A DNA stretch of 64,000 bases, from assembly GCA_964016885.1 (NCBI GenBank), contig OZ024744.1, positions 16,988,001 through 17,052,000 on the forward strand, read 5' to 3'. Below the pieces are notes generated by a model. The model ran no database searches. It was not told the origin of the DNA and saw only the letters and a list, made by a program, of their open reading frames with translations. The translations under genes and the position numbers were made by a program. Shown piece by piece: positions 6,464-64,000 of the stretch (the stretch's first letter is position 1; every line of letters begins with the position of its first letter). The stretch is from Eledone cirrhosa. Taxonomy: Eukaryota.

Positions 6464-6639
6464 TGTTTCTACTTTTTGGCACAAGGCCAGCAATTACCCA
6501 GTGTACTACTGGTACTTTATTTTATCGACCCCGTAAGGATGAAAGGCAAAGTTAACCTCGGCGGGATTTGAACTCAGAATGGCAAGGGCCGTAACTCTAT
6601 GCGTCAAAGCATGGTGTCCGACCCTCTACCGATACTGGC
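6464..6639 (-). mobile_element. tRNA-derived Nin/Deu-domain SINE
   Basis: B box GAGTTCAAATCC and core GCCTTTCATCCTTACGGGGTCGATAAAATAAAGTACCAG on -; flanked by AAATAAT on both sides (candidate TSD). Confidence 0.85.
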
Positions 6640-6819
6640 AAATAATATTCTAGTTGTAAACTTAAACACTAAGGACAAACTTAAAAGGCATGAATACTGA
6701 TCGAAGATATTAGAAGTTCGAACATACAGAAAACAAATAAAGAAAAAAAAAGAAGAAGAAAAAGTCAACGCCTTTTAGGAAAGATGGGGAATTGATCTTG
6801 ATCCATATGCATTTTCCAG

Positions 6820-23336: not shown

Positions 23337-23495
23337 CTATTCTCAGCTAAGTCTCCAGGCAATGCGCGGACACTGGGGACTCATATAAAAATAATAATAA
23401 TTCGGTAGATGGAACAGCTAGCGGGGACTAAATTCCATGCACTGAAATCCTCGCTGCCTCTGGTCAAATGGCCGATTCTAAAGAATCAATCACGT

Positions 23496-23585
<90 letters not shown>

Positions 23586-23592
23586 TACATAC

Positions 23593-23643
<51 letters not shown>

Positions 23644-23644
23644 C

Positions 23645-23695
<51 letters not shown>

Positions 23696-23696
23696 C

Positions 23697-23764
<68 letters not shown>

Positions 23765-23769
<5 letters not shown>

Positions 23770-27015: not shown

Positions 27016-27051
27016 ATTTAAATATAACTTTCCATGTATATATATATATAT

Positions 27052-27810
27052 ATAGTAATAATAATAAATTTGAAGACTAAAATCCAAAGAGGGCTCGATA
27101 AGGATAAATATATATCAAATATATAAGAACCGTAGAGCAAATAAGTATATATTACCTGTATGTTTTGTGAAGGTAGGTATACTTTCTCGTACGTATATTT
27201 GATTGTATATGTTATGGCGTATATTTTATATATTCTGGTACATATGCTTTTGGTTATGTGTATACGTGAGTTTTGCAACTGTGTGAGTATGCGGGTTCGT
27301 ACGTATGTAGGGTGTGTGTATATATGTAATTCGTGTTTTGGTTGACGTACGTCTCCGAACATTGTGTATTTATATGTAGGTATGTGTGTGCGCTTGTTAT
27401 ATACGTATTTATTTATTTATATACGTTTATTTAATGATTTGTATACACGCACACACACATATTTATATGTGCGTGTATTTGTATACCTATGGCGAGTGTT
27501 TTCGCGTATGCTTGTGTATGTACGTATATGGATGCGTGTATGTATTTATTTAATTTCAATTACCTCTGTATTTTATTTACTTTATTCTTAACTCTGAAGC
27601 CGAGAATCATTCGGTTTCCTAGTTAGAATTTTAGTCTACGACTTCAGTTGTACCATTTACGTGGTTTTGTCTTTGCGTGCAATTGTTCTCGACGCCCCAC
27701 ATATGACGTATTATCTTCGTTTTTCCGTTCATTGCCAGAGAACGTCTCTATGAACCACCTAAGAGAATATAAGTCTACGACCTCTTTTATTCCATAAACG
27801 TGGTTCTGAT
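27052..27810. mobile_element. Rearranged Naiad pLTR/3' UTR (27052-27142 on -, 27143-27810 on +)
   Basis: 27052-27142 matches 28698-28788; 27143-27810 is a diverged reverse complement of ~29030-29692. Confidence 0.8.
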
Positions 27811-27834
27811 ATATATATATATGTCTAAGGCGGG

Positions 27835-28065
27835 TAAAATTCCCGAGATCAATGGACGAGTTCTCTCCAGCGGTCTCTGTCCCTCATTATCGCTGCCATG
27901 TCCTGCATCTCCAACAGACCAGTGTCTGTCCTTAGGGCATCAACATACGTTAACCTTGGTCTTCCTCTTCTAGTGTGTCCATGTAGGGACTCCCAAAGGA
28001 GTACTGAGTGCAATGTCAAATCTGGATGTCGGTGAGCATGTCCAGCAAACCTCAGTCTCCTCTGT
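27835..28065 (-). mobile_element. 3' end of an RTE-group LINE
   Basis: QRRLRFAGHAHRH..VLLWE..GHTRRGRPRLTYVD..MRDRDRWR. Confidence 0.8.
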
Positions 28066-28066
28066 G

Positions 28067-28134
<68 letters not shown>

Positions 28135-28252
28135 ATAATAATATATATATAGTAATAATAATAATATATATAGTAATAGTATATATAGTAATAATAATAT
28201 AGTAATAATAATAATATATATAGTAATAATAATATATATATAGTAATAATAA

Positions 28253-28693
28253 TGTTTTATTTATTAACCACAAGGGTTCACATAAAGTAGACATTAATGA
28301 CAGTACAGGACAATACAGGACGGTACAAATGGGCATTTCTGCGTGTAAAAAAACAGAGGTTGAAATAAAATAACAAAGAAAAATTCCCCAATAGGGGGGA
28401 GACTTCCAAGGGACATTTGTGGAGAAAGCCCATTAAAAGACCACAGTGGCCCTGATCACCAGGGCAAGTGCCCTCTCCCAGTTTTCCACCTTTAATTTAC
28501 AGACACATACTCAGAGAAGGCCCATTCAATCGGGCCATACTTGCTTCTCTCACCCATCTTTCAACAAAATGCTGGGAAGAGAGCACTTCCCTCTCTACCC
28601 TGATTTTCCTTTTCAAATGAAATTTGAAAAAGTTAATCAGGGCATCACCGAAGAGGTAAGTGCTCGTCTTCAGCCCTTTCAAACGTATCCACC
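28253..28693 (-). mobile_element. 3' fragment of a Tx1/L1-like element
   Basis: WWIRLKGLK..FFKFHLKRKIRVER matches the ORF2 C-terminus at 46704; ends in AATAAA next to degenerate (AAT)n. Confidence 0.85.
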
Positions 28694-28696
28694 ATA

Positions 28697-31600: not shown

Positions 31601-31770
31601 AATTCTATCCTTCAGGTCTTGCTGGAAGGAATTGCTCCTATTCCGAAATTTGATACTCCGAATGAGTTCCAAGACATCATTTTCGAAGGGTAGCATTGCT
31701 GGGTTCCACGAGGGGTTATTATAAGTTTTAAATCCAAATTTATTCTGTTTGTTGTCTGCTTTTCGCGGAT
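28697..31770 (-). mobile_element. Naiad-type Penelope element, copy 1 (5'-truncated)
   Basis: RT (FDINNYYSSI, MGA, YRDD), CNCRNRADCPLSGKC linker, GIY-YIG; frameshift near 30880, TAA at 30072-30074; pLTR hammerhead at 28802-28877. Confidence 0.95.
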
Positions 31771-31789
31771 ACTTGAACTTCTCCACCTA

Positions 31790-33140
31790 CTTCAGTGGAA
31801 CTCAATTTACATGTAGAGTGCAATGCGCAGGTGGTTCAGTTTTCGCAGTACTGCTTCAACTATTAAGTGTTGCGAGTGAAATAAGCTTTGTGTAGCACCA
31901 GATGTCAGGAGGACCCCTTGGTTCAATTAAGAGGTCAAGGATGCCATCCGAGTAAAGAAAGTGGCTTACAAAGCTTGGCTTGGAATCAAGTCCTCCTTCT
32001 TGCACGCTGTACAAGCAGGCTCGAAAAGTCGCAGCAGAGACAATAAAAGTATCCAAAGTTAAGACATGGGAGGAATTGGGGGTTAAGTTGGAATCCGACT
32101 TCAGAATAGTAAATAAAGTGTTCTGGTAAATCATCCGCCGACTTCATTATAAGAAGCCCTCCTCCACATCTGCTATCAAGAACGCGTCTGGGGTTTCCCT
32201 CTGTTTATAGAGGTGCATCTTTGCGGGTGGAGAGAATACTTTGCTGACCTCCTAAAACCCGATCACAGCAACATCTTCTGATGTATACGAGGTGCAGCAG
32301 GGAGCGGTGACTAATCTCTCAGAGACTGAGGTCACAAGAACAGTTAATTTGCTCAAATGTGGCAAGGCCGCTGGGGAAGACAAAATCCGGTCCGGGATGT
32401 TAAAAGCCTTAAATAGAGAGAGTATTCTCTGACTCATTCGTGTGTGTCGGGTGGCTTGGATCTCTGTATGGGTACTTAAGGAATCGTAATCGGGAGTGAT
32501 AATCCCAATTTTCATAGAGGGAGACGACAAAGATCCCTCTAATTATAGAGGGATCACCTTGTTAAGCCTCCCTGGTAAAGTCTATTGTAAGTGTTTGATA
32601 AAGAGGTGTAGGGAGATTGTCGAGTTCAAGCTAGCTAATGAACAGTGTGAATTTTTCGTCGGACACAGTACAGCCGACCTAATATTCACACTGCGACAGG
32701 TCTTCGAGAAATCGTAGGAGTATTGCCAAGGGGTATATTCTTGTTTTGTAGACATTGAGAAGGTAGACGACCGTATTGCTCGGGACCTGCAGTGGAAGAC
32801 TATGGGAGTATGGGATTGATGGTCAGCTTCTTATTGCCCTAATGTCTTCATACGAATGCTCAAATATGTGTTCGGATAAATGGTGCTAAATCGAAACCAT
32901 TCAATGTGCATGTTGGACTCCACCAAGGGTGCGTACTGTCACCTCTCCTGTTCTTATTTACTTGAACAGGATTGACATGGGCAGCCGGGTTTGGAAGTCG
33001 AATCATGACTCGTGTGTCTAAAATCAGTTAGCTGTAATTTGCAGACGACATAGTGTTACATAACTCGACAGAATGTGATCTCCGACTTGCGCCTGATAGT
33101 TTTGATACCGAGTGCTGTCTGGTTGGAATATAAATCTGTG
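31790..33140 (+). pseudogene. Degraded RTE-clade LINE reverse transcriptase
   Basis: GKAAGEDKI..MLK, IIPIF..GD...SNYRGITLLSLPGKVY, later GL.QGCVLSPLLF and FADD remnants; many stops. Confidence 0.85.
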
Positions 33141-33560
33141 CAACATCTATATAGTTACCTTTTGTTTATCTAATCAGGTACTAGAGTAAAAGTTTTGTTT
33201 GGAACTTTATTAATTTTATATTGCTCAGATATTTCAAATAAGGTATTGTCCTTTAAAATTCAACATATTGTTATTTAACGGTGTCGGTTTGTTTAAGTTC
33301 CTTGCCTAAAAACTTAACATACTGTCTCACACATTTATAAATATCTATATATTGGTTTTACTAAAGGAACATTTATGAAAGACTAATATTTGGTTTGATT
33401 TAGGACATGTTTAGTTAGAATCAGTTTATTTCACTATAATTTGGTATTTCTTCCTATTTTACTTTCCCTTCCACCTCTATTAGTATTCCTCTAGAGTTAT
33501 ATTAAAGTGTATATAGATAACATTAAAACAAAATACAAAAATATTAGGAATAACTATAAT

Positions 33561-33751
33561 TGTTTCTACTTTAGGCACAAGGCCAGCAATTACTCAGTGC
33601 ATTACTGGTACTTTATTTTATCGACCCCGTAAGGATGAAAGGCAAAGTTAACCTCGGCGGGATTTGAACTCAGATCGTAAAGGGACGTAACTACGCTGGA
33701 AAGCATGGCGTCCGACCCTCTACCGATACTGCCAATCCACCGCCCTATAGT
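33561..33751 (-). mobile_element. Full-length tRNA/Nin-domain SINE with 12-bp TSD
   Basis: A box TGGCAGTATCGG, B box GAGTTCAAATCC, Nin core; AATAACTATAAT at 33549-33560 and 33752-33763. Confidence 0.9.
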
Positions 33752-33865
33752 AATAACTATAATGGTAGTTCGTAGATCTTTTGGAAGTTGAGTTTACTGA
33801 TTTACAAATTCATTTGGAGAAATATTCGGAACTCTTCTTTTTTTATATATATATATATATATATA

Positions 33866-36800
33866 TATTTATTAAAATAACAGATTAAAGTTTAAGCAAA
33901 GAATCGCTGCTTTCACCCTTAACGGGATTTTCTGAAACTAACAAAACCAATCTGTAAACGCAGAACTGGATATTTCAAAAAACGTTGCAACCGGAGGAAG
34001 ACAGGAAGACGATACTTTGGTTCGTGGTAACGTTCGCTGGCAAAGAACGGGAAAAAACGAATAATACGTCTTTAATAGGAGCGGTGAAAAACAATTACGC
34101 GCAAAGACAAAACCACGTTTATGGTATAAAAGAGGTCGTAGACTAATGTTCTCTTAGGTGGTGCATAGAGACGTTCTCTGGCAATGAACGAAAAAACGAA
34201 GATAATAAGTCATATGTGAAGCGTGAAGAACAATAGCACGCAAAGACAAAACCACGTAAATGGTATAGCAGAAATCGTAGACTAAAATTCTAACTAGGAG
34301 ACCAAATGAATCTCCGCTACAGAGTTAAGAACAAAGTAAATAAATACAATACAGAAGTAATAGAAACAAATAAATACATACACGCAAACAGATACGTACA
34401 TACACAAGCATACGCAAAACCTTACCATGGGTATACAAAACCACGCACATATAAATATGTGTGTGTGTGTATGCTTGCGTACAAATAAATAAATAATTAT
34501 ATAAACGTATATAAGTAAATAAATACGTATATAACAAGCGCACACGCATACCTACATATAAATACACGAATGTTCGGAGACGTAAGTCAACTAAAACAAG
34601 AAGTACACATATACACCCCCCACCATACGTGCGAAACTGCACACTCACGCGGACACAAAACTCCCGTATACACATAGCAAAACCCTAAATACCAGAATAT
34701 GTAAAAATTATACGCTATAACAGTCAAATATACGTACGAGAAGGTATACATACCTTCACAAAACATACGGGTAATATATACTTACCTATGCAAATAAGTG
34801 AAGGAATAAACAAAACATATACTTAGCTCCCACATCAAGACGTAAAATATCGACGTATAGATCGTGCTATCCGTTAGGGTATAACGTAGCGCTGTAATAC
34901 AGGAAAGTTTTGTGCAATTTATGTTTACAGGCCGAAATTGCCTCAGATCTTTTGTTTAAGATGTGGTCTGTAGCGTAGAGTATTTCCAGGGCCTCAGCGG
35001 CGCAGAGGTCACATGGTCTTTTATTTCCGTTATACGATCTAGCCCTAGCTAGGATCTCCCAGTGTAAATTATATTGGGTGTGGCTGTCTTTTAGAATCCA
35101 GATATAAGCTGAAAGTGACGTCATATTCCTTCTTAGAGGGTAACGAAAAGAATGGGTATGCATTTAAAGACGCTGCTTGAAACTATTGGCGGTTAACCCT
35201 ATGTAGGCCCTACGGGACGTGGGTGTTACAACCTTACATTTGTAGACAATGTTACTAGAGAGGCATTTCCCGGATAGGGGGCAATCAGCCCGATTCCTAC
35301 AATTACAGTTAGTACTAACTACAGTGTTGCACGTGTTCCTACGGCTAGGTAGTTTAGCTAAATCTGAAGCTGTGATGTTATGTGCAAGGCTAGGAGTCGT
35401 CGAGTAAGAAATTTTAATAGTATTTCTATTAAAAATTTTACTATGTTTATGTGTAGGGGGAAAATGCTTCGTAATAAGGGAAAGAAAGATCTTGGCTAAT
35501 GGTGTGGCCACCTCCATATTATATGGTGGGTTAAACCAACAAATGCGACGGGATCTATTTCTTCTAGGTCTATTTTCGCACTCTGTATATGCTACCTTAT
35601 CGACAAATCCACTTCGAGCAAGAGCTTCATTGTAATAAGTGGAATGGTCGTTGAAAATGCGCTCGTTGGTGGAAAGATGGGAAAGCCTCAACGAAACGTT
35701 TCTTACCAGGTTCTTGGTTATGCTGGCAGGATGGTTGGAATGCTTACTTATGTAATTAAGCGTATCATTCGGCTTTCTATACGGGTAATACAACCCATTC
35801 AATAAATTGAGGGTAACGTCGAGGTAATTAACGACCGAGAGATTGGCCTCAACCTGTATAGAGAGGTTGAAGCCTTTAAAGAAGGCTGTGAGTTCTTTTC
35901 TGAACCTGTCGCAAGCACGAGGTCCGCACTTAGTCATGGTCAAAAGACCATCGTCACGGTACAAACCACCGCCCACGTTGGGTAATTCGTCCTTGATAGA
36001 GAAAAGAAGGAAAAGGCCAATATGATCAGTAACCTCCGCAGAGTCACTGGCGCCCATACTCACGTCGAATGGGGTACTATTGGATTTTTTAATCGAAATA
36101 GAGTCGTCGAAATTAATCACCGACTTTCGGGCATTAAGGATGACATCAACTTCAAAATCCTTAACCACTGTGAGTGTTTTAGCGAAATTGATAGCTCTAA
36201 GGAGAAGTGGTAAAGTGATGGAGGAGTAGTAATTGTTGATGTCGAATTGGATAAAACGGCAATGTTCCTTGTTACATATGCCGTTGAACCAATCAATCAC
36301 TGCGAAAGAATTGTTCCACAGTGCGAGAGGGGCCAAACTTCTAATTTCAGGTATAATTCTATCAAGAATCGTTTTACTAAGTCTACCTAAATCGGACTTC
36401 GTAGGGTTAATAAGCCGAATAGAGGGGTTGTTCGGAAAATTGGATTTGTGATCCTTCAGGGTAAAGTGGGGAGAAATAGGGTCCAGAGGTTCGGTCCGGT
36501 CCAGGATGTTGAGATCAGATGTGATTTTAAACCCAGCCTCGTTGATTTCATTGATGACGCACCGATTAGTTTTACGGTAATCCTTAATTACAGCATTATG
36601 TAGTAGTTGATTGTAAGTACTGCGCTCCACTTGATATAGGTTGCCAGTTTTTGTCGGAATGGACGTGCACGGCGTTAGAATCCTTTATAGAACGAATTCT
36701 ATTCTTCAGGTCTTGCTGGAAGGAATTGCTCCTATTCCGAAATTTGATATTCCGAATGAGTTCCAAGACATCATTTTCGAAGGCTAGCAATGCTGGGTTC

Positions 36801-37542: not shown

Positions 37543-37545
<3 letters not shown>

Positions 37546-38125
37546 TTTTCTTTATTAACCACAAGGGTTTACATAAAGTAGACATTAAGGACAGTACAGG
37601 ACAATACAGGACGGTAAAAATGGGCATTTCTGCGTGTAAAAAAAAACAGAGGATGTAATAAAAATAACAATGAAAAATTCCCCAATAGGGGGGAGACTTC
37701 CGAGGGACGTTTGTGGAGAAAGCCCATTAAAATACCACAGTGACCCTGACCACCAGGGCAAGTGCCCTCTCCCAGTTTTCCACCTTTAATTTAAAGACAC
37801 ATACTCAGAGTAGGCCCATTCAGTCGGGCCATACTTGCCTCTCACACCCATATTTCAACAAAATGCTGGGAAGAGAGCACTTCCCTCTCTACTCTGATTT
37901 TCCTTTTCAAATGAAATTTGAAAACGTTAATCAGGGCATCACCGAAGAGGTAAGTGCTCGTCTTCAGCCCTTTCAAACGTGTCCACCATACTATCTCTTT
38001 CACCATGGCCACCAGGCAGATAAAAACTGCCTGCCCTTCCCGCCTAAAGGAAGAGGGCAGGGCAATCCTCATGATGGTCTCAGCTGATAGCTGGATCCGT
38101 CCTACACGCGACAGCAGGTGTTTGA
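37543..38125 (-). mobile_element. 3' fragment of a Tx1/L1-like element
   Basis: EGQAVFICLVAMVKEIVWWTRLKGLK; (AAT)n on both sides. Confidence 0.85.
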
Positions 38126-38144
38126 CATAATAATAATAATAATA

Positions 38145-38840: not shown

Positions 38841-38896
38841 ATAATAATAATAATTGTTTCTACTTGTGGCACAAAGAACAATAATAATTATAACTG

Positions 38897-42712: not shown

Positions 42713-42753
42713 AACAACAATAATAATAATAATAATAATTATTATTATTATTA

Positions 42754-42938
42754 TTTCTACATTAGGCACAAGGCCAGCAATTATCCAGTGTATTACTGGT
42801 ACTTTATTTTATCGACCCCGTAAGGATGAAAGGCAAAGTTAACCTCGGCGAGATTTGAACTCAGAATGGCAAGGGCCGTAACTCTATGCGTCAAAGCATG
42901 ACGCCCGACCCTCTACCGATACTGCCAATCCACCGCCC
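42754..42938 (-). mobile_element. tRNA/Nin-domain SINE inserted in (AAT)n
   Basis: Same family as 6464 and 33561. Confidence 0.9.
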
Positions 42939-46441: not shown

Positions 46442-46703
46442 AATAATAATAATAATAATAATAATAATGATTTTATTTATTGGCCACAAGAGCCGACATA
46501 TAGGGGGCAATACAAAAGACTAGGACTGGGGTTTTACAGAAAAATCGAGTAAACAATATGAATCACAATAACAAACGAGAAAAAATTCCCCAATAGGGGG
46601 GATGACCACCCAGGGTTCGCTCAGGTACCCCACCAATCCTGAACGACCCGACGCTTCGAGAGCACCCTGGAAGGGCACCCCTCTCCTCTTCAAATTTACC
46701 TAC

Positions 46704-49700
46704 CTACAGCCGCATGACCAGAGTAGGCCCAGGCACACGGACCATTCTCGCCACATTCACCCACCTTTCGGCAAATGTACTGGGGGGGGGGGGGGCAGCA
46801 CTTCTCTCTCCACCCTCACCTTCCTTTCCAAGTGAAACTTGAAGAAGTTGATGAGGGATTGGCCGAAGAGAAAAGTGTCTGTCTTCAGTCCTTTCAACCT
46901 CGTCCACCATACAACCTCTTTCGCTACTGCCACCAGACAGAGGAAAATTGCCTGCCCTTCCTGGCCAAAAGAAGGTGGCGGGTCGATCTTCACTATGGAC
47001 TCGGCCGATAGCCGGATCCGTTCTACACGCGACAACAGCTGTTCAACATAACTCCACAAGTCAGTAATGCACGGACACTGGACGAGTGCGTGCAGAACGG
47101 TTTCGTCGCTCTGCGCGCATCTCGGGCAGGTCCGTCTGACAGCACTTCCGTGCCTGTAGAGTTTATCTCGAACTGGCACTGCCAAGCGAGGGATTTTTGG
47201 AAATTATCCATCGTCCTCGGCTCGAAAGTCCTCCAGTACAGACTGGTTAGTTCGACTGTTGACACCCAGAGCCTCTCCGAGGGCGTCGTCGCACTTGCCC
47301 ACCACTAATCCTCTATAGAACTCGAGAGTGGAAGTTCCACTGATCGCATTGTCCACCTGGTAGAGGGCAGTGAGGGCCTGGCAATATTCCAGATGCCAGG
47401 CACCCAGTCTCGGTCTCTTCTTGACCCAGGACTGCAGCTCAGTCAAAGAAACGAGCTGCGGAAAGGCCCGTCTGATAAACGGTGACCACACCTGTTCACC
47501 GTTTAGGCAGAATATCTGGAGATGACGTAGCCTCAGCGCGTTCCTGTGCATCATTAGCCACGGCATGCCCAGCCCTAGATGTAGAGGGTGCTAGCAGCAG
47601 ATGGACCACCTCACCAGCGGAACTTGACCCCTCCACAAGAATTTGAAGAGGAGCCGCTCCAAGATGGCGAGGCAACGGGGTCAAGGGACGACAGTCAGAC
47701 GGTAGTAGATGACGGACGCGATGTACGCGTTCACCACCTCCGCCCGACCTTTCAGTGATAGCGTCATCCCAGCCCATTTCTGGGTGAGACTGGCTACCCT
47801 TCCCGTCCCCTCGTCCCAATTCTTATCCACCAGGAGGTCTGGCCCGAAGCAAACCCCGAGCAACTTTACCGGTCCGTCCGTCCAGCGCCTAACGATGCTG
47901 TTGGACGGCATGGACTTGCCTCTCCAGGTGCCGAGTTGCAAGCCCACCGACTTTTCCGGGTTTAGTTTTGCTCCCGTCAACCTTTCATATTCCTCCAATA
48001 AGTTGCCGACCACCTCGATTTCTGAGGTGTCCGACACCATCACGGTGATGTCGTCCGCATAAGCCGACACAACCTTTCCGCGTTCCGGTTCGAGCGGGAT
48101 GCCCTGCAACAGCTCCAGCTTCCGCAGTAAGTGCTCGAGAGTCAATACGTATAGAAGGGAGGAGAGAGGGCACCCTTGACGGACCGATCGGGAGACCTGA
48201 AAAGGTTCCGAGAGGTGGCCATTAATTTTGACCATCGAGCAGGTGCCACTGTGCATTGCAGCGATCCAGCTTCTGAAGACGGGGCCGAAGCCAGCCGCCT
48301 TGAGGACAGCCTCCAGGTACCGATGGTCGATCCTATCGAATGCTTTCGATTGATCTAAATTGATCAGAGCCACATCGAAGCCAGATTTACACCCTACCCT
48401 CTCTATGATATATCGCATTAGGTGGAGGTTGTTGTGTATGGACCTGGTTGGGATTGCGCAAGTTTGCGCCTCCCCAACCAAATCCCCGACGAAAAGCGCC
48501 AACCTCTTCGCTAACACCCTGGCCAACATCTTAAACTCTGTATTGAGCAGAGTTATGGGCCTGAAATTGTCTAATGTGTCCCTCTTGTTCTCGTCTTTCC
48601 TTATCAGCGTCACTACGCTCCGGCTCACAGAACTGGGAATACTCCTGATTTGCTGCCAGTTGCAGCAGAGGGCTTCGAGTCTGGCATATTTACGTAAAGC
48701 TCGTAGGGCAGACCAGCCGAACCGGTGACTTGCGCCTCATGCAGCCGACAAGAGCATCCTGATATCTCGGCTGAAGTAATTTGGCCTTTCGCAGCGCCCA
48801 GCGTCAGCCGTCGAGTATTGCGGCAAGCCTTCGAGGTAGGGACTGAAGTCCGCCACCATCTCTGACCCGCCACTTCCCCCGAACAACCGAGCAAAATGTT
48901 GGCGAAAGGCCTCACACATCCGCTTGGAATCGCTCAGCTCGTGCCCGTCTCGGCCCGTCAAAGACCGAATCGTGGTTTTATTACCACGCTGCGCCTCTGC
49001 CACGCGGGCCCATCGAACAGCTTTGGTTCCCTCGTTTCTCAGAGCACGCGCCTTAGCTCTGACAATGCAACCTTCGTGTTTCGCATTGAAGAAATGGTCT
49101 AATGCCATTCTCGCCGCTAGCACATCAGTTGCAATGCCACTATCAATAGCCTCGTCTAACTTATCTACCAACTCCCCCTCCTTTCTATTTTTCTCTAACG
49201 CTACTTCTTTAGTAAACTCTATCGACATTACTCTAATCTCTCTTTTGAGAGCCCCCCCCCCCATCTATTGTTGACGACTCCCCCTGTCAACTTTTTCTTA
49301 ACTAAATTGTTGCCCTGGTCCCTGTGAGCCTTACGTGCCGGAAATGACATGTTTAGTTTCCAGTAACGAGGTCCTAACCTACGCGTCTTATCTAGGTCGA
49401 TCATTCAGATCACAAACTTGTGATCTGAATAGGCGACCGTTTCAAAACGTGGACAGCTTACACTATTTCTGTGTATTTTCCTAATGAATATCCTGTCTAT
49501 ATACGATCTAGATGACACTATGTGGTTAGCCCAAGTCCACACTGGCGCATTAGGAATATCTAGTCGGTACCTGTCAGACAGTTGGAACTGGCTGATCAGG
49601 TTCTTGAGACTTTTGCACCCCCCGCTCCTATTGGATACTCCCACACAGTCCCAGCGTGCGTCTAAGATGCCGTTCCAGTCCCCCGCTAACAGTAAAGGGC

Positions 49701-50098
49701 GAGACGTACCCAGAAAGGCTTCCAGGCGTCTAAAGAAGTCCGACCGTCCTGCCCCAGTAGGAGCATAGACGGCCACCAGTCTAAAGGCACCACCTTCGTT
49801 ATTGTTCACGTCCAGGACCACCAACTTCCCGTCCGGGTCTCGGAAGATCGACCTTACCTCGAGATCTAGGCCTTTCCTTAACAGGCCTGCCACCCCGATT
49901 CATTCCCGGCCGGCTAACCGGTGCAAAGATCTGATAGTCGTCGAAAATGGGGCCTAGTGCGCGCGTGTCGGAAATCCTGGTCTCGCTGACGGCAATTACA
50001 TCCATTTCTAGAGACCTAAGGTCGTTGAGCAGGTGACCCTGCTTCCAGGACGATCCCAGGCCTCGAGCATTTAAACACCCTACTCTTAATACGGCCAT
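46704..50098 (-). pseudogene. ORF2: APE endonuclease + RT + zinc knuckle (frameshifted)
   Basis: CLNARGL..SET..VYAP..GDWN..YIDRIF..SDH; FRPITLLN, DQSKAFD, VRQGCPLS, YADD; CPRC..HALVQC. Confidence 0.9.
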
Positions 50099-50129
50099 GT
50101 TGGCAGGTTAAACAGAGAGAGAAGAAGGT

Positions 50130-52093
50130 TTACTTACCTTCCGGGCTCTTGTGAAGGTCGGGTTGTTCGACCTCCATAGATAGTGGGGTTTCTTTTGGGA
50201 ACCCCTTTAAAAGTTTTGAAGTGGGTTTTACGTTCGGGGTTCCCACGTCCCGAGGAAAGCTGTCTCGTATTTCTTTGTATAAATCGAGCGACATTCGCAC
50301 CAGAACCAAATCTTCCGGCACGCGAAATGTGCTCGATTTAAAAATTCCCCCCTCTTTTTGTATATTTTCACTTCGTGCTACGAGGGCCATCAGTTCCTTG
50401 TTGGCCCTCCTGACGATCACGAAGTTTTGTATGTTTTGTTGGTGTGATTTTATTTGTTTGCGTGGCTGTGGTGGAGATGGTTTTGGTGGTGTCGTTTCGG
50501 TTGTGTCTGGGTTTGTTGTGAGTGCGGTGTCTGTGGTTTCAGATGTTTGTGTGTATATTTGTTCTTGCGTCTGTTTAGGTTGTTTGCGTTTGGGGGATTC
50601 TGGTGATGGTGATGGTGGTGTTGATGTTGGTGTTATTGGAGAGATGTTTGCGTGGGTGGTGTCTGCGTTTTTTATTGTGGGTGATTTTGTGCTTTGTTGA
50701 GTTTTTTTTTCTTTTTGTGATTCCTTTTTTTGTATTTTGGGGGATTTTGGTTTTCCCTCATCATCACTACTGGTAGATGAGGGTTCTGTGTCTGTAAGTG
50801 TCTGTGTGTATGTTTATGGTTTTATTGGTGTGTGTATTTTGGGGGGGAGGGGGAATTTGACAGCTTTCCTCGTTTCCGCCCTGGGTTGTCAATGTTGGTG
50901 GTGGTCTTTCTATTGGTGTTGTTGTTAGTGGTTTTGCCGGTGCTGGTGTGCTTGTGGTCCTCGCCCCGGCGTCGGCAGCAGTGGAGTCTTTCGACCCCTT
51001 GCCTCTTTCAGCAGTTGAGGGCAGAAGGCTCGCAAATGGGTTTTTCCCCACAAACAAAACACTGCGGCCTTTTGCCTTCGGTCATAATGTGAATGACAGT
51101 CCCATTCTGAAGTCGGATGTGGTCTGGGATTGTCTTCACATTCTCGGGCCTGATCTGGAGAAGGATCTCAAGGTCAACCCCGGACCAGTCCTCTCTGGCC
51201 GTTCTGGTCACTTCTATAGGGACGGTATCCGTCCCCTCCACAATCACACATCCCAGAAGCCACCACATGTCAAGCCTGGTGGGATTCTGGGAATGCGGAG
51301 ACGTGCCGTTCTTTTTCCCATGTGGGAGGGGTACATTATGACCTTGCTTGTTTTGCAAGGAGTCATAGCGTGTTTGATAACGAGGACTTCTGACTTGAAC
51401 AACACCGAAATGGTGCCGTACTGTCTGCCCCTCGCTATATATTCGGTGTCTTCTCTGATGCACCTCAGCGCGACTTCGATATCTTCTTGTGGGATTAACG
51501 CTGCCCTTTTGGTTTGTGCTGAGATGCATCTATAATGCACCGTTCTGCCTCAATAGCTTCTACCGGGACAGTTAAGTTGACCCAGGTTTGCTCTTGCTTG
51601 ATGAGCTTCCATGCCTGGGCCAACTTTTCATCTTTGTTTGAGAGGTCCATGTTGAATCATGGCCTCTTATTTGCTGCTGCCGCAGCGAAAGTGTTCTTGT
51701 TTTAGTTGGGGGTGTTGTTGTTGTCGTTGTTCTTGTTGGTGTTGTTGTTATCACTGTCGCTGTTATCATTGTTGTCTTTGTTGCTGCCGTTGTTCTCGGT
51801 GCAGTTGGTATTGTTGCTGTTGGTGTTGTCGCTATTTGTTTTCATGTTAGTGGTGTTGATATTGTTGTTGCATTTGTCATTTTTTTTTTGTTATCTGTAT
51901 TTTCGTTGTCGCTGTTACTGTCATTTTTTTCAAAATTAGAGTTCTCATTGGTATCATTGGTGTCTTTGTTTACCTTGTTTGAAGTGGTGTTTGTGTTATC
52001 AATTTGTGTTACTTTCGCTGTAGCGCTCTTCTCAACTTCTACGTCGCTCTCGCACGACAGCAGACATATCGCTGGGGGGCGTGGCTCAGCCAT
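50130..52093 (-). pseudogene. ORF1 (gag-like, Thr/Asn-rich N-terminus, partial CCHC knuckle)
   Basis: EGKRPQCFVCGEK; homologous to ORF1 of the second family; frameshifted. Confidence 0.75.
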
Positions 52094-52317
52094 GTTTTTT
52101 TTTTGTTTTTTTCCTCGTAAATTTTTTAAAATGTAAAAAAAGTTCAAATATTTGGGCCAAAAGGCCCAAATATTATTCTTTCCCCTTCAGGGCAAAGTCC
52201 AATGGCTTGTATGCCTTACACAACAACAAAATTCAAAAAATCAGTTTTGATAGGTAAATAAGTGAACTTACGGGAGCGAGCAAAAAGACGTCCGTTCAGA
52301 CTCAATAAAAATAATAC

Positions 52318-54727: not shown

Positions 54728-54745
54728 ATAATAATAATAATAATG

Positions 54746-55410
54746 ATTTCTTTTTTGGCCACAAGGGCTGACATCAAGAAAAACATTACAGACGGCACAG
54801 GACGGTACAGGACGGTACGATGTGTGGGTTTTGTGCGTGTAAATACCTTTATTATTTATATAAGAAAATAAAAAGACATAGAAACATATATATATAAACA
54901 ATAAAAATGAAAATTGAAACAATGAAAAATTCCCCAATAGGGAGGAAACCTCCGAGGGTTACTCGTAGCGAAAACCACACAAAATACCACGGCCACCCTG
55001 ACTACCAGGGCAAGCACCCTCTCTCAATGTTTCCATTTCTCAAACTACAGGCGTATATTTAGAGCGGTCCCGTTCACTCAGACCATTTTCGCTACATTCA
55101 CCCACCTTTCAACAAACTTGCTAGAAGGCAGCACTTGCCTCACCGCCCTGATTTTCCTCTTGAAGTGAAACTTGAAAAAGTTAATTAGGGATTCGCTGAG
55201 AGGAAAGTGTCTCTCTTTAACCCTTTCAACCATTTCCACCACACAATCTATTTCGCCATGGCCACCAGGCAGATGAAAACCGCCTGCCCTTCCTTCTCGA
55301 AGGAAGACGGCGAGACCATCTGTACAATGGACTCAGTTGATAACCGGATCAATCCTACACGCGACAGCAACTGTTCGACATAGCTCCACAAGTTAGCAAT
55401 CCTCGGGCAC
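54746..55410 (-). mobile_element. 3' fragment of a Tx1/L1-like element
   Basis: QCPRIANLWSYVEQLLSRVG..EGQAVFICLVAM. Confidence 0.85.
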
Positions 55411-58400
55411 TGAATTAGTAATTGAAAACCAAACATCTGCTGAAGAACACAGGGAGACTATGAAGGAATTAAAGCAAAAAATACTGAATGAGCTTGCAGT
55501 AGTAAGACATTCTAGTATAAATGATAGAGAACCACTTCAAAAACTCCCAAATACAATCCAAAATAGAAAACGAATAATGATTGGTAATTCTGTGACAAAA
55601 GAAATCATAGAAGAACTATAACCTGATCTTACTGAGTTAAATGAAATCATTTATGCATCTGCTAGAGTAATTGAAACAAGTTGTTTATCACCAAAAAAAC
55701 AAAAAGAGTCGAGCCTTCGAGGTAAACCAATTTGGAGGAGTAGAATCGAAAAGGAGATTGACGTAATGAGAGGAGAAATATCCTTATTGAATGAGTTAAC
55801 CGCTGGAAATGGTATAAGATCCAAGAAGGTAAGAAAGCTAAAGAGAAAATAGTTTCTAGAGAAGCAATAATTTCAACAAAAGAATCTCTGAAACAAAAGG
55901 TCCAAGTAAAAGCACAACAAATTAGTAGATTCGAGAAGCGAAACAACATCTACAGGCAAAATAAGTTGTTCTCATCCAATGCCAAGTCATTTTATAGAGA
56001 AGTAGGGAAGAAAAAAAAAATATTGAAGATAGAAGAAGTTGAAAACTTATGGAGTAAGATTTGGAGTGATGAGATAACATATAATGCTAATGTAGATTGG
56101 ATTAGTCGCCTGGAAAAATCCTACACAAATTTAGAAGAACAGGCGTGGAAAGACATCTCTATAGCGAACCTAAAGACAGCACTCAATAAATCTCATAAAT
56201 GGAAATCTGGTAGAGACAGGGTGCCAAATTTCTGGCTTTCCTCACTTCCGTGCACTCACAATATATTGGTGAAGCTGTTTAATGGAATTATGAAAGATAA
56301 AAAAAACACCTGATTGGATAGCAAGTGGCATTACCTACCTTCTACCAAAGAACAACGGAACCAAAGATCCAAAAACCTATCGGCCCATAACCTGCTTGTC
56401 CACCACTTATAAACTATTAACCTCTATTCTCTTGGAAAAAGCAGACGTGGTTTTGGAGAAGAACAATCTTTTCCCCATTGAACAAAATTGGTGTCGACGA
56501 GCTTCATATGGTTGCAAAGATCAACTTTTGATTAATCGTATGATCCTTGAGAGCTGTCATAATAAACACAGAAATCTCAGTTCTGCATGGATCGATTATA
56601 AAAAAAAACTTTGACAGCATACCACACTCATGGATTCTGAAATCACTGGACATCTTCAAAATCTCACCTGTGATCTCAAACTTCCTGAAACACAATATGT
56701 CATTATTGAACACAAATCTCCAATTGTCTCATTCCACTGGGGTACTGTGCTCTAGGAATATAAACATCAACTGTGGTATATTCCAGGGTGACTCACTTTC
56801 ACCCTTGCTTTTCTGCATAGCTTTAATACCCCTTACATCCGAACTTAATAGAACAGGGTACGGTTATAGAATTGACAACAAAAAAATAAGCCACCTATTT
56901 TATATGGATGATTTGAAGCTATATTGCAAAGATAATGAGGAACTGGAAGGCCTTTTGCGGACAGTAAAAACGTTTAGCGATGACATCAGGATGGAGTTTG
57001 GACTTGACAAGTGTGCAAAAGCCACTTTCAAGAAGGGGAACTCAGACTCAGTTGAATTGGATGCTGAAACAATCATAAAGGAACTTGAGCAGGAACAAAC
57101 CTATAAATATTTAGGGATTAATGAGGGCTCTGGCATACATCATGCAAGTATGAAATAGAGGATAAGGAAAGAATGTTACAGGAGAGTACGTGCACTTCTG
57201 AGATCAGAACTAAACACTCGTAACAAGGTGCTAGCCATAAACTCCTTGGCAGTCCCAGTTGTCACTTATAGCTTCGGTGTGTTGAACTGGAATATGAGTG
57301 GAATCAAAAGAATCGGCACCAAAGTCCGTAAGCTTCTGACCTGTAATAGGATACACCACCCAAAAGCAGATGTAGATCGTATTTACCTTCCTAGAACTCA
57401 AGGAGGCCGTAGCCTGATCCAATTTGAACTTGCTTACAAGACCACCATCATTGGACTGGCCAAATACCTTGAAACAACTAACAACTGTATGCTGAAGCTT
57501 GTTGAAAGGCATGAGAGAAGTAAGAAGCTTCGTTCTATCTTGAAGGAGAGCAAAACATATGTTACTGATCTCATGCTTGATACCCAGGCTGGACAGACTA
57601 AAGAAACTGTTGCAACTGATGCTGTTAGGGACATAAAATCACTGACAAAAGCAAAAGGGCATGACAATTAGCATCAAATTGGGAGCAGAAACCTCTGCAT
57701 GCAAATATGTGGCCCATAGCAAACAAGCTGGTGTTGACCAAAAGCACACCCATCAGTGGCTACGTAGTTCAGGGCTAAAAGCGTAGAGTGAAGGCTTCAT
57801 CTTAGCTGCCCCAGATCAAAGCTAATTGACTCGTAATTACCAGGCCAATGTGATGAGAAACGGAATAAACCCAAAGTGCCGATTCTGCAATGCTGAGGTT
57901 GAAACAGTGGATCACTTAGTCTCTGGATGTAAAGTTTTAGCACCAGTAGAATACAAATATAGACATGACAGAGTTGGCCAATATCTACACTGGGTAATAT
58001 GTCGGAGTTACAAAATCAAAGCTGAAGACAAGTGGTACAATCATCACCCTGAGCCTGTAACTGAAGGAGAAAAAGTAACAATTCTCTGGGACTTTCCTGT
58101 ACATACTGACAGGACCATAAAAGCAAATATACCTGACATCATTGTAAAAGATCAACACAACAAGGTCTGTTTATTGATAGATATGAGCATCCCATGTGAT
58201 CACAATATCGCGGCAAAAGGATTTGACAAGCTACGAAAATATAAAGATCTGCTTATTGAAATTGAGAAAATGTGGCACCTCAAGGCCGTTACAATGCCAG
58301 TGATTCTGGGAGGACTAGGAATGATCGAGAAAGAAACAGAACAATATTTGCGAATGATTCCTGGTTTACGCTCTCTGCACGAGGTGCAAAACATGTTTAG

Positions 58401-58656: not shown

Positions 58657-61600
58657 GGTTTCTTTATTGGCCACAAGGGCTAACATGAAGAAAAACAGAA
58701 CAGTACAGTGTAAAAAGGGCTATAAAAGACAGAAACGTGTAAAATAAATTAAAATTCAAATAACAAAAATTCCCCAATAAGGGGGAAGCTTTCGAGGGAC
58801 AGTCATGGCGAAAACCACACAAAAGACCACGGCCACCCTGACCACCAGGGCAAGCGCCCTCTCTCAGTTTTCCCACTCCTCAGTCTACAGGCGCATACTC
58901 AGAGCAGGCCCGTTCACGGACCATTCTCGCTACACTCACCCACCTTTCAAAAAACTTACTAGAAGACAGTACTTGCCTCTCCACCCTGATTTTCCTCTTC
59001 AAGTGAAACTTGAAAATGTTAATCAGGGATTGGCCGGAGAGGAAAGTGTCTGTCTTCAACTCTTTCAACCTTGTCCACCACACAATCTCTTGCGTCATGG
59101 CCACCAGGCAGATGAAGACTGCTTGTCCTTCCACTTTAAAGGAGGATGGCGGGACTATCTGCACAATGAACTCAGTCGATAACCGGATCCGTCCTACACG
59201 CGACAGCAACTGTTCGACATAGTTCCACAAGTCAGCAATCCTCGGGCACTGAACGAGTGCGTGAAGAACGGTTTCGTCACCCTGCGCACATCTCAGCTAA
59301 AAGCATCTCCGTGCCTGTGGAGCTTATCCTGAACCGGCAACGCTCCCCAGTAGCACTGCCAGGCTAGGGATTTCTGGAAATTGTCCATAGGTCCGGGGCT
59401 GAGAGTTCTCTTAAAGAGAGCAAACAGCTAATCGTCTTCGACGCCCAGGGTCTCCCCGTGAACGAGGTTGTTCTTCCCCTCCACTAGCCCTTTATAGAAC
59501 GCCAAGGTGGATGTTCCACCGATATCAGTGCGCAGCTGGTAGAGACCGGTCAGCGCCTGGAGACATTCCAGCTTCCAAGCGCTATCCCTTGGTCTTTTTC
59601 TGATCCAGGACTGAGCTCTATCAAGGAGACGAGCTGGGGAAAAGCGTGTCTGGCAAACAGCGACCACACCTGTTCACCGCCAAAGAAGCACCAGAGATGT
59701 TGCAGCCTGAGCGTATGTTTGCGCATCATTAGCCACGGCACACTCAGTGCTCCAAGCAACGGATGCTGACAGCAGATGGATCCTTTGACCATGGGAACAC
59801 GTCCCTCCACAAAAAGCGGAAGAGAAAGCGCTACATTTTGGTCAGAGTTGGACGGGGTAGGGTACGACGGTCAGGCGGTAGCAGATGACGGACGCCATGT
59901 ACGCATTGGCCACCTCCGCTTGACCTTTCAGAGACAGCCTTCTCTCAACCAATTTCTGGGTGAGAGAAGCCACCCTGCTCGTCACCTCGCTCTAGTTTTT
60001 CTCCCTCTGGAGGTCCGGACCGAACCAGACCCCGAGCAATTTAACCGGTCCCTCCGTCCAGTGCCCCACGACGCTGTCGGACGACATGGACTTGCCTCTC
60101 TAGGTGCCGAGTTGCAAACATACCGACTTTTCCTGATTTATCTTTGCTCCTGTCACCACTTCGGAATCCTTGAGAGTGGGGCCGAGCATCTGGATATGTT
60201 TGGTACTGGACACCACCGCGGTCACGTCGTCGGCGTAAGCTGACACGGATCTTCCGCATCCCAGTTCGTGAGGTACCTACTTATGGTCTCCAATTTGTGC
60301 AGTAATGGCTCGAGGGTCAGTACGTACAAGAGGGACGAGAGGGGACAATCTTGGCGGACCGAGTGCATGATGCTGAACGGCTGGTACAGGTGACCATTCA
60401 CCCTCACAATCGAGCAGATGTCGCTGTGCATCGCAGCGATCCAGCCTCTAAAGCCGGGTCCGAAGCCGGCTGCCTCGAGGACTGCAGCCAGATACCGATG
60501 GTCGACCCTATCAAATGCTTTAGATTGATCCAAGTTGATCAGAGCCCCACCCATGCCAGGTTCCTCAACCACCCTCACTATGATGTATCGCATGAGATGG
60601 AGGTTTTCGTGGATGGATCTGTCTGGAATGGCACATGTCTGCGTGTCTCCCACCAGATTACCGACGACAAGCGCCAATCTCTGCTAACAGCTTGGCCAAA
60701 ATCTTGAACTCTGCGTTTAGCAGAGTTATGGGCCTGAAGTTGTCTATAACGTCCTCCTTGTTCGCGTCTTTTCTCAGCAGTGCCACCGCTCCCCGGCTCA
60801 TAAAACTGGGAATGCTCCCGTTCTGCTGCCAGTTGCCGTAGATATCTGCCAAGAGGTCGCCGAACAAGTCTGTAATGTACGCATAAATCTCGTAGGGCAG
60901 ACCATCCAAACCTGGCGATTTACCCCTCGAGCAGTCAGACATCGTTTGCCGTATTTCACCTGCTGTTATCGGCTCTTCGCAGCACTGCACTGCGGCCGTC
61001 GAGAGCCGCGACAGTCCGTCGAGGTATGTACCGAAGTCCATACAGCGATCCGGCCCATCGCCGCTCCCGAACAATTGAGCAAAGTGCTGTTGAAAAGTCG
61101 CATACATCTGCTCGTGTTCTAGCAACATGCGCCCATTTTGATCAGGCAAAGCCCAAATTGTGGACTTGTCACCACGTCGCGCCTCCACCACCCGGGCCCA
61201 TTGAACGGCTTTCGTTCCCTCGTGTCTTAGAGCACGCGCTCTAGCTCTGACAACGTAGCCTTCACGCTTTGCGTTGAAGAATTGGTCGAGTGCCAAATCT
61301 CGCCGCAAGCACGTCGGTTGTGATACCTGTCCTAAACGCCTCTTCTAGCTTTCTAACTAACTCTCCCTCTACTCTATTTTCCTCTATCATTACTCCTTTG
61401 CTAAACCTTATCGATTCTACTTTAATAACCCTTTTAAGGGTAAACCACCACCTGTTGTTGACGATCGCACCCGTCAAAGCACGCTTAACTTATTCACTAA
61501 TCCGGTTTCTGTAAGCTTTGCGCGCCGGGAACGACGCGTTCAGCTTCCAGTAACCGGGGTCCGTGTAGTCGGCTACTTTAAATTGTGGACAACCTACACT

Positions 61601-64000
61601 AGCCTTATCTGTTTCCCTACAGAATACCCTATCTAAATACGATCTGGATAACCCGATGCGGTTTGCCCATGTCCACATTGGCACATTCGGATAATTCAGT
61701 CTATACGTGTCAGACAGATCAAAACGTCTGAGCAGGTTGTTGAGGCTTTTACACCCTCCTGCCCTGTCTACTAGGCCCACATTATCCCAGCGTGCATCTA
61801 AGATACCGTTCCAGTCGCTCACTAACACTAAAGAGCGGGACGTTCCAAGAAAGGTCTCTAGACGTCTGAAGAAATCTGTCCGTCCTGCTCCTGTTGGGGC
61901 GTAGACGGCTACTAGGTTGAAAGCATTGCCTTCGTTGCGGGTCACGTCCAGCACCACCGACTTACCTTACGGGCCCAAGAATGGCGAGATCCAAGCCTCT
62001 CTGGAAAAGCACGGCAACCCATCCCCCGATCCTGGACGGCTGGGAGATGTATATACATCGTAGCCGCCGAAGATCGGTGCGAAGGCTCGTGCTTCGGAGA
62101 TTCTGGTCTCGCTGATGGACACCACATCTATGTTTAGTGACCTGAGGTCGTTGAGCAGGTGACCCTGCTTCCAAGATGACCCCAGGCCACGTACATTTAT
62201 ACATCCTATTCTAAGTACGGCCATGTTGAATGAGAAACGGGGTAAGTAAGAAAGGATCACTTACCTTGATCGTGTGGTGAAGGGACAGTAGAAGCGTCCC
62301 TTTGGCTGGTCATGGGTGTTTCCAAGAGGATGTCGGTGTATATCCTCTTGGTAACCGACACTCTGAAGTCTCCAACTGCGTTGGAGACCTTTTGTTTTAA
62401 AAGTTTGGAATGTTCTATTCATATTTCAATTATGCTTATGTTTGTCGGGAGAGGTGTTGGTGGGGTGTAGTAGTTTTTCTGTGATGTCTGTGTGCTGCTT
62501 TATATGTTGTAGGAGTTCTTTATTTGCCATGTGTATTGGCTGTGTACTTTTTGTGGGGGAGGGGGGTATTGTGTTGCTGTTTTCTTTTTGTTGCTGTTGG
62601 GTGTGTAATTTGTTGTGTTTGCAATGTTGATATTTTTAGTGATACTGGTGGTGGTGTGGTTGTTGTTGGTGGTGATGCCTGTGGTGGTGATGGTGGGATG
62701 GTGGGATGGTGGTGGCGTTGTTGCAAGTTTCCTTGCAGCCTTTACCCCTCTCCGTTTACCTTCGATTTTAGAGAGTGAAGCTAAGGGGTCTTTCCTTTTT
62801 TGTTTTTTTGTGGCAGACCGTTTGCCTCTTCCCTCCCGCCTCATACTCCATATCGAATTCCGTGGCGTCTGGGAGGGGTATGAACTCCACTGCTGTTGGT
62901 GGTGGTAGTGGAGCCCGCTCCGGCGATATTGCCGCCGGTGTAGCTACTGCGACTGTTGGTGTTGCCGCCACTGCTGCCGCTGTTGTCCCTGGCCTTGGAA
63001 TAAGTGCCACGGACGTTGCCCTCCTATTCACCATGGAAGGGTTTTCTCCCGCTGTTGCCTGCCCCGCTCTTGGTAGCAGCGGATCCGGCGTCGAAAGGGG
63101 GGAGTGCTCTTCTTGGCTGTCTTCTGCGGGCAGAAGGCCCTAAGGTGACCCTTCTGTCCACAGAGATAGCACTTTAGGCACCTTCCCTCCACGCTTATAG
63201 GGAGTTGGAGTCCTTCCTCGACCTCTATGATATCGGGGACAGCGTCGATACATTCTTGGTCAGATTGTATAAGCATTTGCATGCCTATACCTGACCAGTT
63301 CTCTCTCCCTATTTTCTCTACTTGCAGAGAAAATAAGGAGAGAGAACTGTCCTCGATTCCAGCAAGGACAGACGCGGCCAGCCAGGGTATGGGCAGGTCG
63401 GGTGGGACCTGGGTCACTTTTACCCTCATAATTTTCTGTCCGCAGTAGGAGGGCACCAAGACTATCTCCTCACTCTTTAGGGTTTCCAAAGCGTGAGACT
63501 TCGCTTCTTGGGGGGTGGCGAAAAGTACGTCTATTGTGGCGTACTTTCTGCCTCGGGTGATGTGGGTTTTGCGTGTCCAGACGCATCTCAAGGCCTTTTG
63601 GATTTGAGCCTCCGTGGCGCTCTACACCTGATGTGAAATTTTGCTTACGGTGCGGTAAGTCACCGTGCGCAGCTGTGGTCTTTGAAGAAATCGGGTGGAG
63701 GTTTCAGGGAAACTCTATTGTCGTTTCTCGACACCATGGCTCTTTCCACTGCCATCTCCTCCTCCGTGACTAACACTGTCTCTATATTTCGGGCCACACC
63801 TGCGAAAGAAGTGGCCCCTCTTTCAGCGGCACCATTATTGTTGCCGCTATTGGTCTTGTTGTTGGTGCTGTTGCTGTTGCTACTGCTAAAACGGTGTTGT
63901 TGGTGTTGTTGCTGTTATCACTTTTGAAGTTGGTTGTGTTTTTGGTGCCACCGTTGTTGTTGTTTCGGTGCAATTTGTATTGTTGCTGTTGGTGTTGTCG
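58657..64000 (-). mobile_element. Tx1/L1-like LINE, family 2 (5' end runs off the window)
   Basis: ORF2 from ATG 62224 (MAVLRIGCINVRGL) to ~58885 with APE and RT motifs; ORF1 with CYLCGQKGHLRAFC; frameshifted. Confidence 0.95.

Follow-up and report, generated by a model that had tools for sequence, protein, structure and literature searches.

The main conclusion of this analysis is that the SINE described below is probably mobilized in trans by the ORF2 protein (ORF2p) of Tx1-like LINEs of the ATT lineage, through a predicted 3′ hairpin common to both elements; we put the chance of this at roughly three in four. The elements were found in the window, i.e., the whole stretch of 64,000 nucleotides that was analyzed (Eledone cirrhosa contig OZ024744.1, positions 16,988,001 to 17,052,000), to which all positions below refer unless a locus is named. 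The same predicted hairpin and the same insertion footprint occur in both elements, and for this reason the SINE likely borrows the Tx1 copying enzyme, a kind of partnership that has seldom been reported for animal members of the group. A sequence-only reading of the window had proposed that the Tx1-like LINE mobilizes and targets this SINE. Tails and footprint agree with this idea, but the partner would be the ATT lineage and not the broken copy at 58657, and the SINE is less array specific than the LINE.

Copies, structure and class of the SINE

The SINE copy at 33561..33745 (-) is ~185 bp long and belongs to a short subfamily that carries an internal deletion compared to older long forms. 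A slightly 5′-truncated copy is located at 6464..6641 (-), another within an ATT array beside a Dong/R4 3′ end (42752..42938 (-)), and a tail-only fragment of ~25 bases was also found in an ATT array (38853..38878 (-)). The tRNA-type head of the 33561 copy contains motifs resembling Pol III promoter boxes at 33723..33734 (-) and 33660..33669 (-), which, by comparison of the sequence with the box consensus, we take to be the A box and the B box, respectively. Close to the 3′ end, a hairpin with a stem of 3 to 4 bp and a five-base loop (33577-33581) is predicted at 33573..33585 (-). Its small size, the lack of coding capacity, more than 100 dispersed copies, the A- and B-box-like motifs, the target site duplications (TSDs) and the 5′ truncation are those of a tRNA-derived SINE, whose RNA would be made by Pol III. 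Neither ARAGORN nor Rfam detected an intact tRNA at the head of the 33561 copy, and no Rfam family matched the SINE. An exact pattern count over the 3.0-Gb assembly gave 116,579 exact tail matches for the subfamily of the 33561 copy.

The element had been labeled a Nin-domain SINE. However, compared by eye, its core bears no resemblance to published Nin sequences (Lottia, Littorina and Nucella), and a conserved Nin motif is absent from the 64-kb window at up to 3 mismatches. The label is not supported by these comparisons, and we drop it until the element has been checked against a domain library. Single printed examples of the Meta/MESC, V, CORE and Ceph domains, also compared by eye, did not match the body of the SINE.

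At ~6200-6395 (-) and at loci L003, L071, L075 and L076, there is an older SINE whose head is related and whose core is the same. Its 3′ part is long and pyrimidine rich, with no hairpin tail in the stretch seen, and this SINE has likely undergone a tail exchange with another partner. We also observed tandem runs of the SINE in which each unit has the same target duplication (L022/L226, L116, L138, L141 and L199), which suggests either that the SINE reinserts into its own end or that a single site is primed repeatedly. Other repeats in the window include a tandem array at 1-2850, with a period of ~42 bases and copies 75 to 80% alike, and several Penelope-like fragments at 21250-36684, with a reverse transcriptase (RT) and a C terminus that we take, from its motif, to be of the GIY-YIG type, some of them with inverted terminal copies.

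Tx1-like LINEs of the ATT arrays

All five Tx1 3′ ends of the window are on the minus strand, as are the SINE copies at 6464, 33561 and 42752 and the fragment at ~38,855, so the common polarity that had been noticed for the two elements was confirmed. The five Tx1-like copies are a broken element of an older ATT subfamily with its ORF2 in pieces (58657..64000 (-), whose 5′ end lies ~400 bases past the window, L335), a second element, full length but decayed, between ATT arrays (46470..52303 (-)), and three 5′-truncated copies, one with a tail hairpin (54745..55414 (-)), one in an ATT array (37545..38129 (-)) and one (28254..28693 (-)) flanked by an 18-bp TSD (28236-28253 and 28694-28711) in the register of the SINE. 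In the right half of the window, Tx1-like (-) and Dong/R4-like (+) elements are stacked inside ATT arrays, and ATT is on the minus strand in 15 of the 16 arrays of the window. At least three Dong/R4-like families share the Tx1 arrays but face the other way, frequently in a tail-to-tail arrangement (38144-58422 (+)). Genome-wide, an exact pattern count gave 10,431 ends of the ATT-type Tx1.

An intact Tx1-like copy was found at locus L235. It has ORF1 and a stop-to-stop ORF2 frame of 1,204 residues, with APE endonuclease (PF03372), RT (PF00078) and C-terminal zf-RVT (PF13966) domains, as in the L1/Tx1 group. The nearest solved structure was human L1 ORF2p (E value of 1e-52, compared to 1e-21 for R2), and the sole named homolog was "Transposon TX1 149 kDa protein." In the RT tree, the L235 group is placed apart from CR1, BovB and Dong, but its link to the TX1 protein is not resolved, so "Tx1-like" is the safe name. 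The preference for repeat targets characteristic of the Tx1 clade was also found, since, in addition to the families in ATT arrays, a sister lineage is inserted in ATCT repeats, often in tandem (L179, L184-L186, L190-L192, L255, L256 and L314). This lineage forms its own branch in the tree (99/100), the ATT families fall on two branches, and its tails have the same hairpin with a variable middle loop base.

As the library of full-length Tx1 copies was picked by a 5′ ATT run, the figure of 10/10 copies with a 5′ array is circular; ATTAT was present near the mapped 5′ end in only 25 of 66 truncated or broken Tx1 copies. ATT-type Tx1 elements with near-identical ORF2 have at least four unrelated types of 5′ untranslated region (UTR) (L215, L235, L217, window positions 52000-52303 and L335), a variety that, from the sequences, suggests repeated replacement of the 5′ end. 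Rfam had no family for three Tx1 5′ ends and thus gave no ribozyme match. ARAGORN called a tRNA-Thr at 62862-62945 (+), inside the Tx1 ORF1 region but on the opposite strand, probably by chance.

A predicted, covarying 3′ hairpin shared by the SINE and Tx1

The ungapped alignment of the two 27-base 3′ ends that had been reported from the window was recovered at the same places, with 21 of 27 bases identical. However, the last five bases of the match are target, namely, part of the 12-bp duplication of the SINE and of the ATT array of the Tx1, and the element-derived match is therefore only 16/22 (17/25 with three more bases). For this window family, the end-anchored match had a p value of ~5e-5 in 20,000 shuffles. 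Compared in register, four SINE tails and five Tx1 tails (20 pairs) were identical at 12 to 18 of 25 positions (p 0.015 to 5e-5), versus 3 to 10 of 25 (p 0.07 or more) in the 20 pairs formed by the SINE tails and five CR1, RTE, BovB and Dong tails. Since unanchored matches of 15 to 17/25 arise by chance in shuffled 5.8-kb elements, the weight of the tail case lies on register, pairing and footprint.

The SINE and all Tx1 families sampled have in common a predicted hairpin of 3 to 4 bp with a five-base loop, at an equal distance from the end and with compensatory changes in the stem. What had been described as 27 shared bases is indeed a common 3′ end, although the shared signal is better described as a covarying hairpin plus spacer. 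The hairpin of the 58657 element (58669..58681 (-), loop at 58673-58677) has the loop and register of that of the SINE, and the closing pair is C-G in both, but the second stem pair is swapped, with G-C in the SINE where Tx1 has C-G. At the third pair, several Tx1 families have G-C like the SINE, and another Tx1 family has A-U. Seen in this comparison of families, the mismatches within the SINE-Tx1 alignment are more than noise. The two elements thus have a 3′ end in common whose stem-loop is conserved, as in stringent LINE-SINE pairs, with an extent of ~25 bases that are only 50 to 70% identical. The G-C second pair of the SINE was seen in no Tx1 3′ end, either among the sampled families or in the pattern searches.

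We evaluated pairing in an alignment of 19 hand-picked rows, comprising 4 SINE tails (three of them rare variants), 14 Tx1 3′ ends and one Tx1 5′ UTR. In this alignment, 86.8% of the cells were paired, three of the four pairs had changed on both sides, and the covariation score was 0.437 versus at most 0.114 with slid partners; the shuffle counts are not probabilities, because the 19 rows are related. RNAalifold, unaided, predicted three of the hairpin pairs. Single-sequence folds contained the hairpin in five of six window copies, and it was part of the minimum free energy fold of the 6464 SINE copy, whereas the 33561 copy folds otherwise. Folding-energy z-scores of the hairpin were not significant (-1.8 to +0.6).

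The weak predicted stability of the hairpin favors a different explanation, namely, that Tx1 ORF2p moves the SINE in a relaxed manner through the AUU end of the RNA alone, the hairpin being an inherited relic or a signal for 3′-end processing. Among L1-clade LINEs, the majority are considered relaxed (PMC3472496), and a young ATT-tailed CR1-like family (see below) shows that such tails are common in this genome. Still, the stem has been kept paired via double changes across differently targeted Tx1 lineages and the SINE, and CR1, which also ends in ATT repeats, lacks the Tx1 footprint that it might show if any such RNA were accepted. We therefore regard recognition of the AUU end alone as improbable.

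The tails of the ATCT-targeting Tx1 match the SINE tail equally well (17 to 18/25), and consequently the tail alone cannot name the Tx1 lineage. From these sequences, the tail would point to the Tx1 group as a whole and the target to the ATT families.

In one 5′ variant of the youngest Tx1 subfamily, a hairpin resembling the SINE tail was also found near the 5′ end; 7 of the 17 full-length copies have this variant. The hairpin is located ~150 bases from the 5′ end and ~30 before the start of ORF1 (L212:5712-5745 and L215 ~5760-5785, both (-)), and it has the second pair of the SINE. The identity to the SINE tail (17 to 20/25) is better than that of the LINE's own 3′ end, and none of 300 shuffles reached 19, for a hairpin of one lineage picked after the fact from 10 aligned and 17 scanned copies. 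Four of these seven have a changed loop base, and at the corresponding place in other 5′ variants the hairpins are different. This 5′ hairpin might serve ORF2p as a second site, or the SINE tail might derive from it.

Insertion footprint and target preference

The footprint common to the SINE and Tx1 is a duplication of ~10 to 20 bp that starts with ATTA, usually after a pyrimidine. SINE targets showed a strong ATTA motif and strand bias, with ATTA two bases past the A-run, at the same offset, in 135 of 164 SINE ends. A TSD of at least 10 bp was found in 62 of 164 SINE copies, versus 2.6% in swapped-flank controls, and none was found in 51 of 164; the median length was 15 bp. Of 46 single SINE copies (11 tandem copies were set aside), 45 had a pyrimidine (C or T) before the site, compared to 272 of 594 background sites. 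Within the window, the AAT-like TSDs previously attributed to the SINE were verified for two of the copies, with 12 bp at 33561 (3′ copy at 33549..33560 (-) and 5′ copy at 33752..33763 (-)) and 7 bp at 6464, but the 42752 copy is in an array, and no duplication is measurable there.

Tx1 TSDs are measurable only outside arrays. In a sample of 134 rows (99 + 35, with some loci counted twice), 14 copies had clean TSDs of ~9 to 19 bp at the offset of the SINE, 13 of them after a pyrimidine. The majority of these loci were retrieved with a pattern in which ATTAT had to follow the tail, so that the initial five bases of the target were given in advance; the independent features are therefore only length, register and the preceding base. 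No TSD was seen in many of the other Tx1 copies outside arrays. The comparison of insertion sites and ages suggested by the sequence-only reading therefore gave a match in the start and length of the TSDs, together with overlapping identity medians (see below).

Array preference is where the two elements differ, in spite of the same insertion signature, which is another property of stringent pairs. Among 30 unselected ends of each element, the sequence continues into an 11-base ATT repeat in 21 for Tx1 but in only 3 for the SINE, and only 206 Tx1 ends match the short-site pattern. Genome-wide, 11 bases of ATT repeat come after 14,956 SINE ends, whereas none of 594 background sites within 200 kb had such a repeat. 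The SINE is strongly enriched at ATT repeats, yet far less array specific than Tx1. This gap in strictness may come from a short AUU end on the SINE RNA, from selection against long insertions elsewhere or from an unsampled sister family.

The last possibility, taken as an explanation of the whole pairing, would make the driver a sister L1/Tx1 family that has a relaxed ATTA target and is unsampled, of low copy number or extinct; the Tx1 families that seek arrays would then only share its tail by descent. It would account for a SINE that is mostly outside arrays when Tx1 is mostly inside, for the second stem pair and spacer of the SINE, which are in no sampled Tx1 3′ end, and for old SINE forms that predate the sampled Tx1 families. 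On the other hand, five pattern searches, either for Tx1-type tails in which the stem or loop differs or for SINE-type tails that lack the SINE in front of them, gave, in the loci inspected, only known families, mutants and SINE fragments, array Tx1 elements that land off array leave the footprint of the SINE, and ~15,000 SINEs do occupy ATT repeats. We consider such a sister family unlikely, if the most plausible of the alternatives to mobilization by the ATT-lineage Tx1.

Other LINEs as possible partners

A different LINE with a better-matching tail would have argued against Tx1, and none was found in our survey, which covered ~1.9 Mb enriched for SINE and Tx1-type elements together with pattern searches of the genome. 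The search for a LINE with the SINE's own tail gave 495 pattern matches; all 30 that we inspected proved to be variants of the SINE or fragments consisting of its tail, and in a further search, five of five were SINEs. Tx1-type tails with other stems or loops gave 609 matches, the 30 inspected being known Tx1 families, and another tail pattern gave 49 matches, which, judged from the listing, were scattered mutants.

The young family mentioned above, found by a Pfam RT search in which the 30 loci fetched were CR1 and not a spread of clades, is represented by loci L081-L110 and L146-L175, and its name is our assignment from a C-terminal motif. It has a 945-amino-acid open frame and an ATT tail and is dispersed, with 8,502 exact tail copies up to 99% identical. 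These properties, as well as the SINEs inserted in its copies, would suit a partner, with the Tx1 likeness then due to chance, and CR1/L2 partners serve several SINE superfamilies (PMC3747384). Nevertheless, its tail is identical to that of the SINE at only 3 to 4 of 25 positions in register and has a different hairpin. A TSD of at least 10 bp was found in just 2 of 37 CR1-like copies with a mapped 5′ end, both in tandem repeats, versus 62 of 164 SINE copies. This contrast largely refutes CR1, which we rejected as a very improbable partner. As a separate observation, SINEs have inserted repeatedly at one ATTATT site in the CR1-like 3′ UTR (L004, L104, L153 and L175).

RTE/BovB and Dong/R4 elements are both abundant, Dong shares the arrays, and RTE-type SINEs make TSDs (PMC6007223). 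However, the terminal repeats are GAT in the RTE families and, in Dong, AAT with the polarity reversed, and the tails of RTE, BovB (from one copy) and Dong are identical to the SINE tail at a nonsignificant 6 to 10 of 25 positions. They were likewise rejected, as partners that we find barely credible. Some short elements in the survey end in an RTE-type tail with GAT repeats (L210, L147, L164 and L220) and are probably RTE-dependent nonautonomous elements.

Ages and nesting

The median nearest-neighbor identity was 95% for the SINE (163 copies) and 98, 94, 92 and 90% for the Tx1 subfamilies, figures that depend on sample size. The lowest of these corresponds to the older subfamily of the 58657 element (7 of 10 copies scored), and it is likely that the younger Tx1 subfamilies (94 and 98%), not the broken 58657 copy, drove the SINE subfamily of the 33561 type. 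Older long SINE forms had a nearest-neighbor identity of 85%, compared to 90% or more for the sampled ATT Tx1 subfamilies, and by this measure look to predate every one of them.

Insertions were found in both directions. Three clean cases of a SINE inside a Tx1 body remained after 13 of 16 rows of the nesting scan were dropped, as they matched one library entry that itself contains a SINE, and a truncated Tx1 lies directly behind a SINE tail at L043, L218 and L333. This reciprocal nesting fits overlapping activity, and, with the identity medians, the activity periods of the SINE and Tx1 overlap, as in stringent pairs.

A model of mobilization and its relation to known pairs

In the mechanism that we propose, ORF2p of the ATT-lineage Tx1 would read the loop and accept any paired stem, by analogy with zebrafish L2 proteins. 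The APE endonuclease would nick the AAT-reading strand just before a purine, the short AUU end of the RNA would pair with the freed 3′ end, and a second nick ~15 bases further on would generate the TSD. A short ATTA(T) site would suffice for the SINE, whereas the LINEs occur mostly in arrays.

Loop reading with tolerance for a swapped stem has been demonstrated experimentally for ORF2p in UnaL2/UnaSINE, ZfL2-1 and ZfL2-2 (PMC4176376). The SINE and Tx1 tails show the same pattern of change (loop kept, stem swapped) in another clade, in which loop reading is deduced and not experimental as for L2 (PMC4176376). Within the L1 clade, stringent pairs are LINE1-1_ZM with ZmSINE2/3 in maize and sorghum and L1-1_CR with SINEX-3_CR in Chlamydomonas (PMC3472496, PMC3747384). 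As in the pair described here, they have a conserved 3′ hairpin with a fixed loop and compensatory stem that is common to their SINEs, but they belong to plants or algae, share longer tails (45 to 80 bases) and have no microsatellite target in the portions of these reports available to us (PMC3472496, PMC3747384). A survey of >800 L1-clade families lists only three tail-sharing pairs, all in plants or algae (PMC3472496), and no Tx1 or animal L1-clade pair appears in Table 1 of the Ohshima survey (PMC3747384).

The closest precedent is SINEU and Tx1-Mar of crocodilians, paired by target and age, for which no LINE sharing the SINEU-1 3′ end was found (PMC4494074, Kojima 2015). There too, a SINE with a Tx1 partner shares its target preference, most of the SINE families showing it less strongly than the LINE does, but SINEU has a snRNA head and a Mariner target, unlike the tRNA-type head, microsatellite target and shared tail hairpin found here (PMC4494074). 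Kibi, Koshi and their crocodilian relatives are also Tx1-like APE-RT elements inserted with fixed polarity in simple repeats, although the targets here are ATT and ATCT repeats, and the same partial source describes no partner SINE for Kibi and Koshi (PMC4494074). SINEs of the Nin/Deu, Meta/MESC, V, CORE and Ceph types have a similar architecture, with a tRNA-type head, a central body and an exchangeable LINE-type tail, but their known partners are L2, CR1 or RTE, and their printed bodies differ by eye from that of our SINE (PMC4758252, PMC4824008, PMC5804259). Tx1 is not mentioned in the consulted part of Kojima 2018 (PMC5786205), and in the literature outside subscription papers, Repbase and Dfam, we found no tail-sharing LINE-SINE pair of an animal Tx1. 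The LINE clades of the window (RTE, Dong-R4, CR1, L1-Tx1 and Penelope) are those whose activity has been reported in Octopus vulgaris (PMC13282606).

LINE-SINE pairs with a common tail are frequent, but the one Tx1-SINE case that we found in print, SINEU, rests on target preference (PMC4494074). The present analysis names a likely engine for a SINE with >100,000 copies. More tentatively, and with the odds somewhat against it, there may be, among animal Tx1 elements, a stringent lineage in which ORF2p recognizes a five-base loop of the RNA whatever the DNA target (ATT or ATCT), a lineage that one of the dominant SINEs of this genome would exploit while escaping the array restriction. If this were true, target strictness would lie in the RNA end as well as in the endonuclease, and the pair would offer a natural contrast between strict (LINE) and loose (SINE) target use by one enzyme. 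In an animal Tx1 that has young copies still intact, a natural passenger and covariation in its 3′ hairpin, it becomes testable whether stringent recognition is ancestral in the L1 group, and the pair bears on how stringent RNA recognition was relaxed in mammalian L1.
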